Of a stretch of DNA of 64,000 nt, positions 8,345 through 61,424 are shown piece by piece; position 1 is the stretch's first letter, and each line of letters opens with the position of its first letter. The position numbers were made by a program, and so were the translations under genes. Under the pieces are notes generated by a model that was given only the letters and a program-made list of their open reading frames with translations, made no database searches and was not told the origin of the DNA. The stretch comes from an uncultured delta proteobacterium (GTDB lineage Bacteria; Myxococcota_A; Polyangia; Polyangiales; Houyiibacteriaceae), in the NCBI GenBank assembly GCA_963712235.1, contig CAVQHC010000007.1:221144-285143 (forward strand), given 5' to 3'.

Positions 8345-8626
8345 CTACTCGTAGGTACAGAGGTAGGCCGTGTCGATCGCGACCTGCAGGTGGAACTTCT
8401 GCTGCGCATCGACCACGAAGCTCGTGCCCGCCTCGTAGCGCACCCAGTCCTCGGAGCCCGGAAGCTTCACAGTGAGCGCGCCGCTGACCACGGTCACTGT
8501 CTCTTTGTCCGTGGTCGCAAACTCGTAGTTCCCCGGGGCCATCACACCAACGGTGGCGCGGAGCGTTTCGGTCTGAAAACCAATCGACTTCACCTTGCCG
8601 TCGAAGTACTCATTGACGTCGAGCAT
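8345..8626 (-). CDS. ppnP: pyrimidine/purine nucleoside phosphorylase PpnP (DUF1255 cupin)
   Basis: 93-aa product beginning [17 protein letters not shown], matching the PpnP/YaiE family over its full length. The ORF-track extension to 9265 runs into the repeat and is rejected. Confidence 0.85.
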
Positions 8627-8734
8627 GCTCACTCTCCCGGGATCATCGGCGCCGTGGTCACCATCGCGCTGCCGGCTAAGAGCGCGCGTAGCACGACCCC
8701 GGCGCCATGTCAGTACCGGAGCGGCAGTGACACT

Positions 8735-9350
8735 GGCGCCGCAGCGACCGGGGCGCGGAAAAAGGCGCGACACGGGGCTGCGTCGAACGGCTCGGCTTGC
8801 AAAGGTGGCCGGAGGGGCTTGAGGCCTGAGGCCACGCAAGCCGAGCCTCGGAGCTCGCGCCAATCGGCGGTGGTTGCTGTCTTGCCGATTGTCACTCGCG
8901 ACGTCGACTCCGCCCCATATCGCGCCTTTTTCCGCGCCCCTCCCTACGGAGACAGGACCACCCAACCTTCCCCAAACAGCAGGCGGCAGCGCGAGCCCGA
9001 AGGGCGAAGCCCGGCGCCAAAGGCGCCGGCAAGGCAGAGCGAAGCGAATGCCGCGCCAGGGAGGATTACGGGTGGGGGTGGGCGGGGCGGTGCAATCAAG
9101 CCGTACCACCCAACCCACCCAAGACCCACCCCCCAAACACCCGCGGCAGCACAACCCGCTCGGCGCCACCCGCCCCTCCATACGGAGACAGGACGCACAA
9201 CCTTCCCAACCGGCAGGCGGCAGCGCGAGCCGGAACGGCGAAGCCCGGCGCGAACGCGCCGGCAAGGCAGAGCGAAGCGAATGCCGCGCCAGGGAGGATT
9301 ACGGGTGGGGGTGGGCGGGCGGTGTAACCAAACCGGGCAGTGTAACTAAA
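8735..9350 (+). repeat. composite hairpin-rich repeat, copy A (palindromic head 8748-8942 plus two long tandem units)
   Basis: A homologous ~600-bp copy lies at 33119-33720. The outer inverted repeat is 8750-8778 / 8912-8940. Inner hairpins are 8789-8800/8836-8847 and 8861-8868/8884-8891. Units start at 8939 and 9172. Confidence 0.8.
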
Positions 9351-9392
9351 CCGCCACTGTCACCGCCACCCCGGAGATGCTACGGACCCCGC

Positions 9393-10034
9393 ATGATCAT
9401 CGAGCATTTCTCCGTCGCGCCGCTCGGGTGCAACTGCGTGATTCTTGGCGACGAAGAACGGGGGACGGGGATTGTCGTCGATCCGGGGGGCGAAGCACCT
9501 AGGATTCTTGCGCGCCTCGAAGAGCTCGGCCTCAAATGCGAAGGGATCGTCCACACGCACACTCACTTCGATCACATCGGCGCGACCAAAGAGGTTCAAG
9601 ACGGGACCAATGCGCCGATCATGATTCACGAAGACGATCTGTTCCTCTATGAAGGCGTGCAGATGCAGCTCGATGGTTTCCGGGCCCCGTTCCGCGCACC
9701 AGAAATGGCGGCCGTCGACCGCTTTCTTTCTGATGGCGATACCGTCTTGGCGGGCGGGCTCGAGGCAGACGTCGTTCACACGCCCGGGCACTCGCCGGGC
9801 AGTATTTGCCTCACTTTGGAAGGCGATCGACCCCTCGTCATCGCGGGCGACACCCTCTTCGCCCGGAGTGTCGGTCGCAGCGACCTGTGGGGCGGCAACA
9901 CGTCGCAGCTCGTCGACTCGATCAAACGCAAGCTCTTCGCCTTGCCAGACGAAACCCTGGTGATCTGCGGCCACGGCCCCAACACGACGATCGGCGAAGA
10001 GCGCCGCTTGAACCCGTTCGTCGGCGGCGCTTAG
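9393..10034 (+). CDS. MBL-fold metallo-hydrolase (glyoxalase II-like)
   Basis: 213-aa product starting MIIEHFSV, with HTHTHFDHIG (HxHxDH) and a downstream HTPGHSPG motif. Confidence 0.85.
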   Translation: MIIEHFSVAPLGCNCVILGDEERGTGIVVDPGGEAPRILARLEELGLKCEGIVHTHTHFDHIGATKEVQDGTNAPIMIHEDDLFLYEGVQMQLDGFRAPFRAPEMAAVDRFLSDGDTVLAGGLEADVVHTPGHSPGSICLTLEGDRPLVIAGDTLFARSVGRSDLWGGNTSQLVDSIKRKLFALPDETLVICGHGPNTTIGEERRLNPFVGGA

Positions 10035-29657: not shown

Positions 29658-30049
29658 CTTCCGGCCCCAAGCCGCCAGCCCGCGACCATGATGGCGCCCC
29701 AGCCGACCAAGAAGAGCAAACCACCGAAAGGGGTGATCATTCCAAGCTTCGTCTGGCCAGTAATTGCCATCATGTAAAGGCTACCGCTGAAGAGGCCGAC
29801 TCCAGCGAAGAATGCCCAGCCCGCGAACAGCGCCGAGGCGCCTGCACCGCGATGGACGAGCCAGGCGGCCAGCGCCAGCGCCAGCGCATGGGTCAGGTGG
29901 TAGTGGGCGGCTGTGGTCCACCAGTCCAAGCGCTTGACGGCGTCTGGAAGCGAACCGAGGCGAGACTGCAAGCCATGCGCGCCAAACGCGCCGAGCGCCA
30001 CGGCGCTAAAGCCGAGCAAGCCAGAGAGAATGATGAAGATTCTAGCCAT
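29654..30049 (-). CDS. DUF423 (YgdD/TMEM256) family membrane protein
   Basis: 131-aa four-TM protein. The FGAHG motif near the N-terminus and HY/H residues are typical of DUF423. Confidence 0.75.
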   Translation of the reverse strand: MARIFIILSGLLGFSAVALGAFGAHGLQSRLGSLPDAVKRLDWWTTAAHYHLTHALALALAAWLVHRGAGASALFAGWAFFAGVGLFSGSLYMMAITGQTKLGMITPFGGLLFLVGWGAIMVAGWRLGAGS

Positions 30050-30163
30050 CGAAGCCCATCATGTGCCAGGTATTGCAGCAGGACCAGGCCGCGCGCTAGC
30101 ACCTCGCAGGCGAACGCGTTAGGCTCTGCCAGCGACCGGGGTTATTGGAGCCACGACTCGGAG

Positions 30164-33118
<2,955 letters not shown>

Positions 33119-33720
33119 TCGGCGGTGTAACCAGAACTGGTGCCGCAGCTACCGGGGCGCGGGAAAAAGCCCGTCACGGGGTTCCATCGAACGGCTCGGC
33201 TTGCAGATGTGGTCGGAAGCACTTGGGGGCCTGGACCACGCAAGCCGAGCCTCGGAACTCGCGCCAATCGGAGCGGGTTGCTGTCTTGCCGATTGTCACT
33301 CGTTACGTCGACTCCACCCCATGACGGGTTTTTTCCGCGCCCCTCCATACGGAGACAGGACCACACAACCTTCCCAACCGGCAGGCGGCAGCGCGAGCCC
33401 GCAGGGCGAAGCCCGGCGCGAACGCGCCGGCAAGGCAGAGCAAAGCGAATGCCGCGCCAGGGAGGATTACGGGTGGGGGTGGGCGGGGCGGTGTAACCAA
33501 GCCGTACCACCCAACCCACCCAAGACCTGGCCCCCATCCACCCGCGGCAGCGCGAGCCCGAAGGGCGAAGCCCGGCGCGAACGCGCCGGCAAGGCAGAGC
33601 AAAGCGAATGCCGCGCCAGGGAGGATTACGGGTGGGGGTGGGCGGGCGGTGTAACCAAGCCGAACCACAACCCACCCAAGACCGGCCCCCACCACCCGCG
33701 GCAGCGCAAACCCAAGGAGC
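33119..33720 (+). repeat. composite hairpin-rich repeat, copy B (palindromic head 33154-33343 plus tandem units)
   Basis: Colinear with 8735-9350 and in the same orientation. Outer inverted repeat 33154-33182 / 33316-33343. Unit cores restart near 33373, 33543 and 33697. Confidence 0.8.
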
Positions 33721-33734
33721 AACACTGCAATCAG

Positions 33735-33792: not shown

Positions 33793-34209
33793 TTACTTCG
33801 ACCCGGCCTTGACCGAAATCTTTCGCGGCGTCGGCGCTTCCTTCTTGGGAAGCCGGAGCTCGAGCACCCCGTCCTTGAGGTCGGCGCTGATATGGTCGGC
33901 GTCGACCGTTTCGGGAAGGCTGAACGATCGGGTGAAGCTGCCGTACTGTCGCTCGACGCGACGATAGCTGCCCTCGGTCTCTTCCTTCTCGACTTTGCGC
34001 TCACCGCTGAGTGTGAGCACCTTGTTCTCGACGTCGACCTTGACCTCGTCTGCGGTCAGGCCCGGGACCTCAGCGTCCACGTAAAAAGCGTCAGCTTCCT
34101 CGCGGATGTCGACCGCGATTTGAAACGCTTGCTTTGCAAGCCCCCTGCCACCTAGGAAGTGGTCATGGAGGCGATTCATCTCTTCAAATGGATCCCAACG
34201 AACCAGCAT
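33793..34209 (-). CDS. Hsp20/alpha-crystallin family small heat-shock protein
   Basis: MLVRWDPFEEMNRL start, an alpha-crystallin domain (AEVPGL...VENKVLTLSGER) and a GVLELRLPK motif. GGAGGAG lies 6-12 nt upstream of the ATG at 34209. Confidence 0.9.
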   Translation of the reverse strand: MLVRWDPFEEMNRLHDHFLGGRGLAKQAFQIAVDIREEADAFYVDAEVPGLTADEVKVDVENKVLTLSGERKVEKEETEGSYRRVERQYGSFTRSFSLPETVDADHISADLKDGVLELRLPKKEAPTPRKISVKAGSK

Positions 34210-34308
34210 GATGTACTCCTCCGTCAACCTGCGTTCGCAGGCCCGGTAACGGTTGGATCAAGCCGCAGCGCCACCATCGCGCATGGGCCATCTTCCAACG
34301 ATGGAGGC

Positions 34309-44582: not shown

Positions 44583-44825
44583 ATGAACACAGCACTCAAG
44601 CACACAATCATCGCAATGGCGACTGCGGCACTCGGTGTGACCGCCGGATGTAAGTCGGACGCTGGTCCGGAAGCCTCCGAGGCGACGACAGGCGCCGAGA
44701 CGGCAGCCGCGGCCGAGGCCTCGTGCGGCGAAGGCAGCTGCGGCGGAGCAAAGGATGCGGCTGAAAAGGCCGGCGATGCAGCGGAAGCTTCCTGCGGCGA
44801 AGGCAGCTGCGGCGGGGCGAAGTAA
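44583..44825 (+). CDS. small lipoprotein with two EASCGEGSCGGAK repeats: candidate MNIO-modified RiPP precursor (HvfA-like)
   Basis: 80-aa ORF. MNTALKHTIIAMATAALGVTAGC signal with lipobox. Two Cys-Gly-rich repeats. Immediately upstream of the DUF692 and DUF2063 genes. Confidence 0.65.
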   Translation: MNTALKHTIIAMATAALGVTAGCKSDAGPEASEATTGAETAAAAEASCGEGSCGGAKDAAEKAGDAAEASCGEGSCGGAK

Positions 44826-44921
44826 CCGTCCGAGCGCGTCGCGCGACCTCGACTGGGGCAGCACGATATTTCGAGCCGCGGCGGCAGCTGTCGCCGCGGC
44901 TCGTCTCTTTTCGGGACCCGC

Positions 44922-59522: not shown

Positions 59523-59596
59523 CAGGCCAGGAGGGATTCGAACCCACAACCCGCGGATTTGGAATCCGCTGCTCTACCAATTGGAGCTACTGGCCT
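59523..59596 (-). tRNA. tRNA-Trp (anticodon CCA)
   Basis: Cloverleaf folded by hand: acceptor AGGCCAG/CTGGCCT, D arm GCTC/GAGC, anticodon arm GCGGA-TTCCAAA-TCCGC. The T arm has one U-U mismatch. No encoded CCA. Confidence 0.9.
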
Positions 59597-59607
59597 AGAT
59601 GCGGGTC

Positions 59608-59769
59608 CTATTTACTCTCTTTATGTTCCGTGCGCTGGTTGCATTTGGGACAGAACTTTTTGAGCGTCAGTCTCTCCCTCTGGCCGGGCTTTCTCAACTT
59701 CGTCGTCTGGTAGTTGCGCGCACCGCACTCTTCACATGCGAGCGCGACCTTAACCCGCCTATCACTCAA
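59608..59769 (-). CDS. rpmG: 50S ribosomal protein L33 (Zn-ribbon, C+ form)
   Basis: 53-aa ORF absent from the ORF track: (M)SDRRVKVALACEECGARNYQTTKLRKPGQRERLTLKKFCPKCNQRTEHKESK. TTG start. Canonical position between tuf and tRNA-Trp. Confidence 0.85.
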   Translation of the reverse strand: MSDRRVKVALACEECGARNYQTTKLRKPGQRERLTLKKFCPKCNQRTEHKESK

Positions 59770-59807
59770 TGTCTTGCAGGGTCCCTATCTGTCGTACGTC
59801 CACCCTG

Positions 59808-60998
<1,191 letters not shown>

Positions 60999-61058
60999 CG
61001 TTCGTTCCCTACTTCGTCGTTCTTCTGAGTGGGTCGCTGGAACCCACGAAATCTGCGG

Positions 61059-61130
61059 AGCCCAGGATGAGACTTGAACTCACGACCTCCCCCTTACCAA
61101 GGGGGTGCTCTACCACTGAGCTACCTGGGC
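61059..61130 (-). tRNA. tRNA-Thr (anticodon GGU)
   Basis: Hand-folded cloverleaf: acceptor GCCCAGG/CCTGGGC, anticodon arm CCCCC-TTGGTAA-GGGGG, T arm GTGAG-TTCAAGT-CTCAT. Confidence 0.9.
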
Positions 61131-61147
61131 ATAGTCTGATTTGCGGG

Positions 61148-61220
61148 AGCGGGCGACCGGGCTCGAACCGGCGACATTCAGTTTGGAAAACTGAGGCTCT
61201 ACCAACTGAGCTACACCCGC
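61148..61220 (-). tRNA. tRNA-Gly (anticodon UCC)
   Basis: Acceptor GCGGGTG/CGCCCGC, anticodon arm TCAGT-TTTCCAA-ACTGA, T arm GCCGG-TTCGAGC-CCGGT. Confidence 0.9.
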
Positions 61221-61242
61221 GTAATCTCTTCGTTCATCTCCT

Positions 61243-61327
61243 GGTGGAGGGTGGTGGGTTCGAACCACCGTAGGCATAAGCCGGCAGATTTACAGTCTGC
61301 TCCCTTTGACCGCTCGGGCAACCCTCC
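61243..61327 (-). tRNA. tRNA-Tyr (anticodon GUA), long variable arm, encoded CCA
   Basis: Acceptor GGAGGGT/ACCCTCC, anticodon arm GCAGA-CTGTAAA-TCTGC, T arm GGTGG-TTCGAAC-CCACC, 3' ACCA. Confidence 0.9.
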
Positions 61328-61351
61328 ATGGTCATTCGTGTTTTCGCGTAG

Positions 61352-61424
61352 AGCTGGCGATGAGACTTGAACTCATAACCGCCGGTTTACAAAACCGGTG
61401 CTCTACCAATTGAGCTACGCCAGC
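61352..61424 (-). tRNA. tRNA-Thr (anticodon UGU)
   Basis: Acceptor GCTGGCG/CGCCAGC, anticodon arm CCGGT-TTTGTAA-ACCGG, T arm ATGAG-TTCAAGT-CTCAT. Confidence 0.9.

Follow-up and report, generated by a model that had tools for sequence, protein, structure and literature searches.

A hairpin-forming mosaic repeat family with compensated stems in uncultured Polyangiales

A 64,000-nucleotide stretch of an uncultured delta proteobacterium of the order Polyangiales (contig CAVQHC010000007.1, positions 221,144 to 285,143; hereafter the window) carries two copies, A and B, of a non-coding repeat. A sequence-only reading of copy B had proposed that substitutions between the two copies are paired in such a way that every stem is preserved. 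The candidate roles that it offered were an element resembling repetitive extragenic palindromes (REPs), bacterial interspersed mosaic elements (BIMEs) or miniature inverted-repeat transposable elements (MITEs), a structured small RNA (sRNA) family, and a transcription or mRNA-stability insulator. The locus thus raises the question of whether secondary structure is constrained here and, if so, whether as DNA or as RNA. The two copies were found to belong to a hairpin-forming non-coding repeat family of uncultured myxobacteria that is previously undescribed; no account of it was found in the literature on myxobacterial REP-like repeats and on REP-associated tyrosine transposases (RAYTs) or REP doublets (REPINs) in Myxococcota. 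Compensating changes maintain its stems. With moderate confidence, we regard the family as a mobile REP/BIME/MITE-like mosaic repeat that is constrained as a DNA hairpin and that possibly also serves as a 3'-end or terminator element.

Paired changes in the stems of M1 and U

Pairwise alignment of copies A and B revealed a common plan, in which a Y-shaped palindrome of 190 nt (M1) is followed by a linker of 44 nt (L) and two tandem units of about 140–145 nt (U). A repeat search of the window found 83% identity between positions 8732–8930 and 33136–33334 and four copies of U, and a profile search of the 64 kb returned M1 twice and U four times, with no M1 or U copy beyond A and B. The gene contexts were as previously described: copy B (33151–33721) lies in the gap between sucA and hsp20, on which both genes converge, and copy A (8747–9353) lies in an unrelated spacer between the divergent ppnP gene and a gene for a metallo-beta-lactamase (MBL)-fold hydrolase. 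Upstream of its second U, copy A has a degenerate M1 3' end and another copy of the linker (repeat family D6), and it thus looks like a duplicated M1-L-U block whose second M1 was mostly lost.

Further copies were retrieved by scanning a 22-mer from U against one genome per species and a 25-mer from the M1 arm against metagenomes. The U pattern matched at least 88 genome stretches, and those listed all came from 10 metagenome-assembled genomes (MAGs) of Myxococcota, classified as Polyangiaceae, Myxococcales or 'delta proteobacterium'; the M1-arm pattern matched 66 metagenome contigs. Among the matches listed, the family therefore appears confined to a clade of uncultured Polyangiales (Myxococcota). 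Neither pattern matched a viral contig, and a phage origin thus lacks support. Profile searching with nhmmer over 620 kb of these loci yielded 131 U and 57 M1 matches.

The paired differences previously listed between copies A and B were all present in the sequence. In the outer stem of M1, GGCGCGA/TCGCGCC of copy A becomes GCCCGTCA/TGACGGGT in copy B and GGGGC/GCCCC becomes GGGGT/ACCCC, while the inner helix changes from GTGGCC/GGCCAC to GTGGTC/GACCAC. Among the tandem units, GCCC-GAA-GGGC (units A1 and B2) corresponds to GCCG-GAA-CGGC (A2), and CCGGCGCC-AAA-GGCGCCGG (A1) to CCGGCGCG-AA-CGCGCCGG (A2, B1 and B2). Paired changes are not limited to these two copies, and covariation was clear in the wider alignments of both modules, so that neither of the refuting outcomes named in the sequence-only reading came about. 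In an RNAalifold consensus of 34 distinct full-length M1 copies, 17 of the 53 pairs were changed on both sides, and standard pairing was kept in 96.7% of the cells compared with 89.3% in shuffles. The covariation score was 0.202, as against 0.079 in shuffled alignments, none of 500 of which reached it, and 0.02–0.06 when the partners were slid. For U (95 copies), pairing was kept in 99.4% of the cells, 5 of 21 pairs changed on both sides, and the covariation score was 0.099, compared with 0.024 in shuffles (0 of 500). The U helices were defined by hand, because the automatic consensus joined a C-rich stretch to the G-tract. This RNAalifold pairing of CCCGGCG with the G-tract was dropped in favor of the local hairpins h2 and h3, given that pair 56/69 covaries and the alternative partner column 8 is invariant. 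Folding pointed in the same direction for M1, which was more stable than its shuffles both as RNA (z = -5.9 for copy B and -6.8 for copy A; -119 to -140 kcal/mol) and as DNA (z = -7.4 for copy B); the advantage of U was modest (z from -1.7 to -2.6).

Five pairs of M1 hairpin 2 show GC-to-CG and CG-to-TA exchanges, and hairpin 3 occurs as CAATCGG/CCGATTG, CAATCTG/CAGATTG and CAATCCG/CGGATTG, with pair 119/141 being G:C in 22 copies, T:A in 6 and C:G in 5. In one subfamily, GGCGGAAC/GTTCCGCC stands in place of GGAAAAAGG/CCTTTTTCC, the A-run and its T-run partner in the outer stem. Hairpin h1 of U carries a C:G to G:C flip in 13 copies, and the inner stem of h3 exists as GGCA/TGCC, GGCG/CGCC, GCCC/GGGC and GCGC/GCGC. 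The stem of h2 is invariant, its loop being GAA, AAA, AGA, GAAC or GAAT, and some copies have an extra base pair. Parsimony on the copy trees called for repeated independent changes at many pairs, such as at least 8 at M1 pair 47/93 and at least 9 at pair 119/141, counts that recombination between copies may inflate.

The view that loops and linkers vary freely held only in part. Some of them do vary, but the loop GGTTGCTGTCTTG of M1 hairpin 3 and, in U, the segment AGGGAGGATTAC and the G-tract GGGTGGGGGTGGGCGGG are almost invariant. Similarly, the proposal that structure is constrained, and not sequence or a reading frame, stood with regard to the compensated stems and to the frame, which 1-nt insertions and deletions exclude, but not with regard to sequence, as unpaired segments are also strongly conserved. 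Protein coding was rejected, since long open reading frames (ORFs) span the element on both strands and yet the copies differ by 1-nt insertions and deletions. A mini-ORF following GGGAGGA-N6-GTG was rejected as well, its frame and stop being shifted between U variants. A U variant was observed at loci L014 (6555–6720 and 7516–7690) and L054 (4400–4568), in which about 29 bases are added after CCAGG and the GGAGGATT segment is replaced by CAAAAC (...GCACGCTGCTCACTCGCGTGAGAGTGATACCAAAAC...); the hairpins and the G-tract are retained.

Signs of a constraint on DNA hairpins

Mispairs in the M1 alignment (53 pairs, 1795 cells) were divided equally between the two kinds, with GT+TG = 19 and AC+CA = 19, and gave no sign of wobble tolerance on one strand; most exchanges were GC-to-CG flips. 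The mini-hairpins of U have GAA, GCA or AAA loops closed by C:G, GCGAAGC included. Such loops, and GCGAAGC, are classic very stable DNA mini-hairpins. The equal numbers of G:T and A:C mispairs, the dominance of GC-to-CG flips and these loops are together suggestive, though not decisive, of a constraint on an intrastrand DNA hairpin or of arm-to-arm templated repair, and speak less for a strand-specific RNA. Such a hairpin or cruciform would arise while the DNA is single-stranded in replication or transposition. A structure-specific enzyme, modeled on an HUH/Y1 transposase of the RAYT or IS200/IS605 kind, would read it, or it would be repaired by template switching from arm to arm, or both.

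Template switching might also account for the palindromes by itself. In this neutral explanation, quasipalindrome correction and gene conversion would keep the arms complementary with no selection on structure. It is in line with the GC-to-CG flips, which have no wobble intermediate, dominate, recur (at least 8 at pair 47/93 among 34 copies) and leave very few mismatched intermediates, and also with the replacement or conversion of copies, for which the evidence, given below, is clear. However, the outer stem of M1 keeps specific mismatches and bulges uncorrected, such as GACAC opposite ATATC, unpaired loops hardly vary between MAGs with flanks that have diverged by 5–20%, and the position relative to stop codons is non-random. 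We consider a purely neutral origin improbable.

The sRNA family became the least likely of the roles that had been offered, in view of the symmetric mispairs (19 versus 19) and the dominance of GC-to-CG flips. Strong covariation and conserved loops would be expected of trans-acting sRNAs or of other independently transcribed structured RNAs, and the Shine-Dalgarno-like GGGAGGA in U could pair with targets. The mispairs are nevertheless without strand asymmetry, the arrays take both orientations relative to neighboring genes, and there are probably at least 100 copies per genome, with truncations and a variable number of modules. No Rfam family matched the element: tRNAs alone attained the gathering score, and the other matches up to E = 10 were microRNA hairpins far below threshold. 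Consensus scans found no sigma-70-type promoter, and no terminator-like site in copy B; the T5–6 run of M1, which is replaced in one subfamily, sits inside the 3' arm. Promoter- or terminator-like sites bounding the element are missing. Independent transcripts of this kind are, in our judgment, very improbable.

A short-loop G-quadruplex (G4) motif with four runs of at least 3 G is present in 93 of 95 U units, as a sequence motif only. In the G4 columns outside the search pattern, three loop positions had 10 changes compared with 3 changes at seven G-run positions. U units hold 142 of the 157 short-loop G4 motifs in the 1.06 Mb sampled and all four in the window, and the repeats thereby supply nearly all strong G4 motifs in these genomes. 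This share, together with the invariant unpaired motifs (AGGGAGGATTAC, the G-tract and GGTTGCTGTCTTG), is also what an array of binding sites for a chromosome-organizing or regulatory protein, or a G-quadruplex or cruciform landmark, would show, comparable to the sites for integration host factor (IHF) and gyrase in BIMEs. We give this explanation hardly any weight, because it leaves the covariation of the long stems unexplained and no candidate protein is available. A retron msr/msd was rejected on the grounds of many copies and no reverse transcriptase gene nearby.

Modules, ends and copying between sites

The complete unit measures about 445–600 bp and consists of a 44-nt arm, the M1 interior, the linker, one to three U units and an inverted arm. 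The arm starts with (T)ACC-GGGGCGCGGAAAAAGGCGCGACACGGGG..., and the M1 interior comprises two hairpins closed by an imperfect internal copy of the arm; each U has three small hairpins with purine-rich loops of 3–4 nt in addition to the G4 motif. The order M1-L-U(1–3) is recurrent, with or without the inverted arm, and U-only arrays and truncated or nested copies are many, so that M1, L, U(n), the inverted arm and hexamer arrays are combined in various ways. The linker was matched by blastn in 18 loci. With two arrays in the window and about one exact-match locus per 70–100 kb in the best-sampled MAG contigs, extrapolation, rather than counting, suggests that a genome probably holds about a hundred or more arrays. 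At L095–L160, many arm matches are no further than 100–400 nt from a contig end, and the family thus appears to break metagenome assemblies.

In many loci, the first 44 nt of M1 recur in inverted orientation behind the last U, and the unit is then bounded by ACCGGGGCGCGG...CCGCGCCCCGGT. Inverted arms of 44 nt are present at both ends of 11 complete units, and this terminal inverted arm is absent in copies A and B. The arm terminus follows the consensus NACC-GGGGCGCGG in 111 distinct arms, in which A at -3 is invariant and T at -4 occurs in about 45%. No target-site duplication was found at the 11 complete units or at the pairs of filled and empty sites, and the flanks, where they resemble each other, do so in inverted rather than direct orientation (L099). 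A TA/CTAG duplication or a 5-bp duplication of the Tn3 type was rejected on account of these inverted flanks and of the T at -4 in only about 45% of arms, and a GTAG head borne by the element was rejected on account of a distance between TAG and arm that ranges from 0 to 20 nt. An outer palindromic module (…GGGCACGCTAGCACGCGTGGGCCC…) was observed in inverted orientation on both arm flanks at L099 (95–133 and 595–633), as well as at L121, L023 and L154; it contains CTAG and therefore provides a TAG stop on both strands. At L003 (4970–5120), intact M1 arms enclose an unrelated long G-rich/C-rich hairpin (GTGGGGGCGGCGGGGTGGGGA...TCCCCACCCCGCCGCCCCCAC) in place of the usual interior, indicating that the arms can frame different contents.

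Arrays of the hexamer NNCAGY (e.g., GCCAGTGCCAGCGTCAGC), 18–168 nt long, accompany the family. Of 74 such arrays, 63 are in intergenic DNA and 47 have an M1/U array no more than 120 nt away, being mostly inverted upstream of it and direct downstream, and they also fill 'empty' sites. Copy B is placed less tightly against its stop codon than the arm ends described below, as its arm begins 32 nt past the sucA stop, behind a 14-nt fragment of U and a hexamer remnant, and a similar flank (CACTGGCGC...GCAGCTACC) precedes M1 in copy A and at L061, L011/L063 and L021.

Comparison of related loci showed that similarity among copies does not follow position. Loci L063 and L011 are syntenic with the window over sucA-hsp20 (sucA identity 95% and 90%) and carry the element at the same place, with one U in L063 and one U plus a partial one in L011, compared with two in the window. 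About 93 extra bases, missing from the window, separate the sucA stop from M1 in both (L063, 2062–2160; L011, reverse 870–965). The M1 of copy B is 97% identical to those of L058 and L030, which are unrelated loci in other MAGs, and only 79–80% identical to its positional orthologues in L063 and L011, which carry the 'A type' of M1. This contradiction between M1 similarity and position argues that what separates copies A and B is the divergence of two older subfamilies that were copied around, and not a series of changes made in place. One of the two displaced the other at the sucA site, through conversion or re-insertion.

Filled and empty sites were found as well. In L071, M1 and U directly follow a TAG stop, whereas in L079 the stop is followed by a hexamer array; L042 and L054 form a second filled and empty pair, and a U of L030 has a hexamer array as its counterpart in L058 and L069. 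For copy A, the nearest relative found was L089, whose MBL protein is 95% identical; its ppnP-MBL spacer of 175 nt contains a hexamer-like array only and neither M1 nor U. The more distant L093 and L094 lack both ppnP and the element, and L091 retains a truncated 5' half of M1. One orthologous site has three different contents (M1-L-U in L058, a partial M1 and then M1-L-U in L030, and U-U in L069), and another holds M1-U-U in L046 and a single U in opposite orientation in L081. Presence and absence thus differ between relatives, as the syntenic comparison proposed in the sequence-only reading was meant to reveal; the target-site duplications that it was also to look for did not appear. The proposal of a REP/BIME/MITE-like element fared well, in that a dispersed modular repeat is supported. 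Judged from these site comparisons, the family behaves as mobile or recombining DNA.

In the window, ppnP sits between a glycosyltransferase gene and the MBL gene, and in L089 only a 35-aa fragment is annotated although the DNA looks largely intact. The ppnP-MBL spacer has been remodeled repeatedly, as seen from the window, L089, L093 and L094. A perfect small palindrome, AAAAAGGGGTCAGACCCCTTTTT, which resembles a bidirectional terminator, occupies 2405–2440 of L091 and L092 behind different upstream genes, and truncates the M1 5' half of L091.

All-against-all clustering of ORFs in 620 kb of loci gave orthologues and ordinary paralogues, and nine ORFs were further analyzed with Pfam; no recurrent transposase-like ORF was found. 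No parent autonomous element with matching ends was found in about 1.06 Mb of arm-containing loci, whole genomes being outside the search. A gene for a 108-aa '23S rRNA intervening sequence protein' (PF05635, E ~1e-13) was observed between two U arrays in three MAGs (L014:7128–7454, L068:4016–4342 and L069:7272–7535), which probably represent one orthologous locus.

Placement at stop codons and comparison with known repeats

All of the 116 arrays analyzed are intergenic. Of the 69 that have a gene at either side, 44 (64%) are in convergent gaps, 18 in tandem and 7 in divergent ones, as against 102, 309 and 87, respectively, of 498 background intergenic regions. Arm ends lie at most 10 nt from the stop of a gene reading toward them in 54 of 111 distinct cases (49%), and ten stops overlap the arm as TAACC. 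The arm-adjacent stops were TAG in 28 cases, TAA in 24 and TGA in 9, compared with 352, 157 and 452 over all predicted genes (p = 8e-8), indicating that TGA is depleted. In a first set of M1 copies, the median distance from stop to M1 was about 8 nt, and that from the U side to the stop of the other gene about 88 nt. In the L071/L079 pair, one insertion is exactly at the stop codon. Such placement could reflect either insertion that prefers stops containing TA or selection for a role of the element at 3' ends. The orientation relative to the upstream gene was rejected as evidence for an RNA role, since in a convergent gap the M1 5' end faces a co-oriented gene either way and the 18 tandem arrays are divided into 10 co-oriented and 8 opposed.

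Because the units fill gene 3' ends, they are probably transcribed into 3' untranslated regions, and their position would agree with an RNA role there. As in REP/BIME, transcription could be halted, or 3' exonucleases held up, by the G-tract and by the M1 hairpin, which is very stable. The candidate role as a transcription or mRNA-stability insulator, or as a terminator, gains strength from the stop-codon-adjacent position. If this were the primary function, the element would be a cis-acting RNA of the 3' untranslated region, serving bidirectional termination or insulation between convergent genes, protection from 3' exonucleases or coupling to translation termination, with dispersal being secondary. 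A ribosome at the stop codon would cover the foot of the hairpin, the share of convergent arrays and of arm ends close to a stop is as expected, and the fold is extremely stable. In addition, the gene on the M1 side is usually without another terminator, the U side leaves 40–130 nt, which is room for the neighbor's own hairpin, the G4 motif is nearly universal, and the unpaired segments are conserved across species. Most M1 copies have a T5–6 run behind the inner portion of the outer stem, but in one subfamily it is replaced by TTCCGCC with the opposite arm compensated, which implies that a U-tract is not required. Further points against a primary RNA function are that G:U is no commoner than A:C, that the terminator scan of copy B was blank, that divergent promoter regions also hold copies (copy A; 7 of 69), that tandem orientation is near even, and that module content at one site differs between relatives. 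We regard this explanation as unlikely, though worth keeping in mind.

A more specific and rather doubtful view is that of a new hairpin-ended mobile class that inserts precisely at TA-type stops with no target duplication, i.e., a self-spreading 'terminator cassette' shared by convergent gene pairs. The Y hairpin would then start in the ribosome footprint, the G-quadruplex units would block read-through, and a single-stranded-DNA mechanism would be used.

The reading that we prefer, a mobile mosaic repeat constrained as a DNA hairpin, has several points weighing against it. Its mobile part rests on presence or absence and on swapping at sites, for which recombination or gene conversion alone could suffice, and no transposase or other mobilizing enzyme and no arm pair enclosing a gene was found in the approximately 1.06 Mb sampled, whole MAGs being outside the search. 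The conservation of unpaired segments across MAGs with flanks of 80–95% identity also fits a host function. Sequence cannot separate the RNA from the DNA level, and the missing G:U asymmetry is negative evidence from few cells. Retrieval by exact 22–25-mers skews the sample to conserved copies, and the context statistics use a crude in-house gene caller based on codon usage.

Proteobacteria and Firmicutes are the main groups in which dispersed palindromic repeats are known, and the origin, spread and host role of these repeats are debated. The present family was filed under the broad kind of dispersed mosaic palindromic repeats, in which the size and branching of its palindrome, its G-quadruplex tandem units and its ends against TAG/TAA stops are unusual. 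REPs and REPINs of Enterobacteria and Pseudomonas are mobilized by RAYT, an HUH Y1 transposase; REPs stabilize the mRNA that precedes them, and those located no more than 15 nt from a stop codon affect translation. Like REP/BIME and REPIN, the family is extragenic, high-copy, palindromic and mosaic, lies at gene 3' ends and in convergent gaps, has compensated hairpins and no target-site duplication, and persists vertically with turnover of copies. REPs are, however, simple hairpins of 20–40 nt and REPINs of about 100 nt with a GTAG-type head, whereas here the Y shape of 190 nt has 44-nt arms and a (T)ACC foot, and M1 is combined with hexamer arrays and with tandem units of 145 nt that carry a G4 motif. 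By a definition of REP as a short palindrome with a GTAG foot, the family falls outside, its foot being NACC.

MITEs, such as the Correia/NEMIS elements of Neisseria and the Tn3-derived TIMEs, resemble the family in being non-coding, shorter than 600 bp and many-copied, with long terminal inverted repeats and insertion polymorphism. MITEs can be co-transcribed and act on mRNA 3' ends. They have a target-site duplication and derive from a parent insertion sequence that shares their ends, neither of which was found for the M1/U family in the loci sampled, and they conserve the sequence of their arms rather than the pairing, in contrast to the covarying arms seen here. The BOX elements of Streptococcus pneumoniae (boxA-boxB(n)-boxC) likewise have a variable tandem middle unit between pairing end modules, and both are intergenic and non-coding, with a stable predicted structure and an unknown mobilizing enzyme. 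The two differ in sequence and host, and BOX has modules of 45–59 nt, no G4 motif and no reported stop-codon placement.

The TRIT motif of Mycobacterium tuberculosis and the uptake-sequence pairs of Neisseria and Haemophilus are repeated terminator-like palindromes with single hairpins of 30–50 nt. They share with the family a GC-rich repeated palindrome just past stops, often convergent, with a weak or absent U-tract. Integron attC sites are also imperfect palindromes right after a stop, with structure over sequence, and are read as folded single-stranded DNA. An attC assignment was rejected, as no RYYYAAC/GTTRRRY (R''/R') cores, cassette arrays or nearby integrase were found and the copies are dispersed beside housekeeping genes such as sucA and hsp20.

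For the study of such repeats, the Polyangiales family provides an unusually large, branched hairpin in which many pairs covary, sites that are clearly filled or empty, and ends that touch stops, mostly TAG or TAA, at either side of convergent pairs. Placement due to targeting would represent a new insertion specificity; placement due to function would show how transcripts end in GC-rich bacteria without classic U-tract terminators.

Coordinates of copies A and B, their neighboring genes and the associated hexamer arrays (window positions unless a locus is named)
Feature	Positions	Strand	Description
sucA	29852–33118	+	stop TAG at 33116–33118; Pfam E1_dh, Transket_pyr, OxoGdeHyase_C
hsp20	33793–34227	-	Pfam HSP20
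Copy B, left flank	33121–33150	+	14 nt identical to U segment CGGCGGTGTAACCA, then remnant of inverted hexamer array (ACTGGTGCCGCAGCT)
Copy B, M1 5' arm (inverted-repeat arm)	33151–33194	+	starts ACC-GGGGCGCGG; blastn-short, query 1–44
Copy B, M1	33154–33343	+	long outer stem around two hairpins; folds, consensus structure, covariation; nhmmer E = 4e-56
Copy B, M1 hairpin 2	33203–33261	+	GGCTCGGCTTGC...GTGGTC...GACCAC...GCAAGCCGAGCC; pairs 41–52/88–99 and 57–62/82–87 of alignment A3
Copy B, M1 hairpin 3	33274–33305	+	CCAATCGG...CCGATTG; conserved loop GGTTGCTGTCTTG
Copy B, M1 3' arm	33308–33343	+	imperfect internal inverted copy of the 5' arm; from the fold and by analogy to copy A pair I1
Copy B, linker L	33344–33386	+	CCTCCATACGGAGACAGGAC...CCGGCAGGC; repeat family D6
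U unit B1	33387–33531	+	hairpins h1–h3, AGGGAGGATTAC, G-tract 33471–33488 (short-loop G4 motif), C-rich tail; nhmmer E = 2.5e-33
U unit B2	33546–33690	+	G-tract 33630–33646; nhmmer E = 4e-34
Copy B, array end	33700–33721	+	degenerate start of a third U, GGCAGCGCAAACCCAAGGAGC; alignment with L063 and L011, arm scan
ppnP	8345–8632	-	
MBL-fold hydrolase gene	9393–10034	+	
Copy A, M1 including ACC foot	8747–8940	+	inverted pair I1, 37-nt arms, 89% complementary; nhmmer E = 1.5e-61
Copy A, linker L and U unit A1	8941–9132	+	G-tract 9070–9087
Copy A, degenerate M1 3' end, second linker, U unit A2 and 18-nt tandem tail	9163–9353	+	second linker (D6) at 9163–9208, 65% identical; TRF array 9316–9353
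U unit A2	9219–9330	+	G-tract 9303–9319
Hexamer arrays	L071:5740–5890; L079:3110–3170; L042:5520–5640; L054:4330–4390; L058/L069		
Hexamer short remnants	8718–8746; 33137–33150		

Two further features of the window were observed away from the repeats. Five clustered tRNA genes lie on the minus strand at 59523–61424 (Rfam tRNA, 54–74 bits). Two direct repeats of 56 nt (GCGGCCGAGGCCTCGTGCGGCGAAGGCAGCTGCGGCGG...), 79% identical and 69 nt apart, occupy 44709–44833 and bear no relation to the M1/U family.

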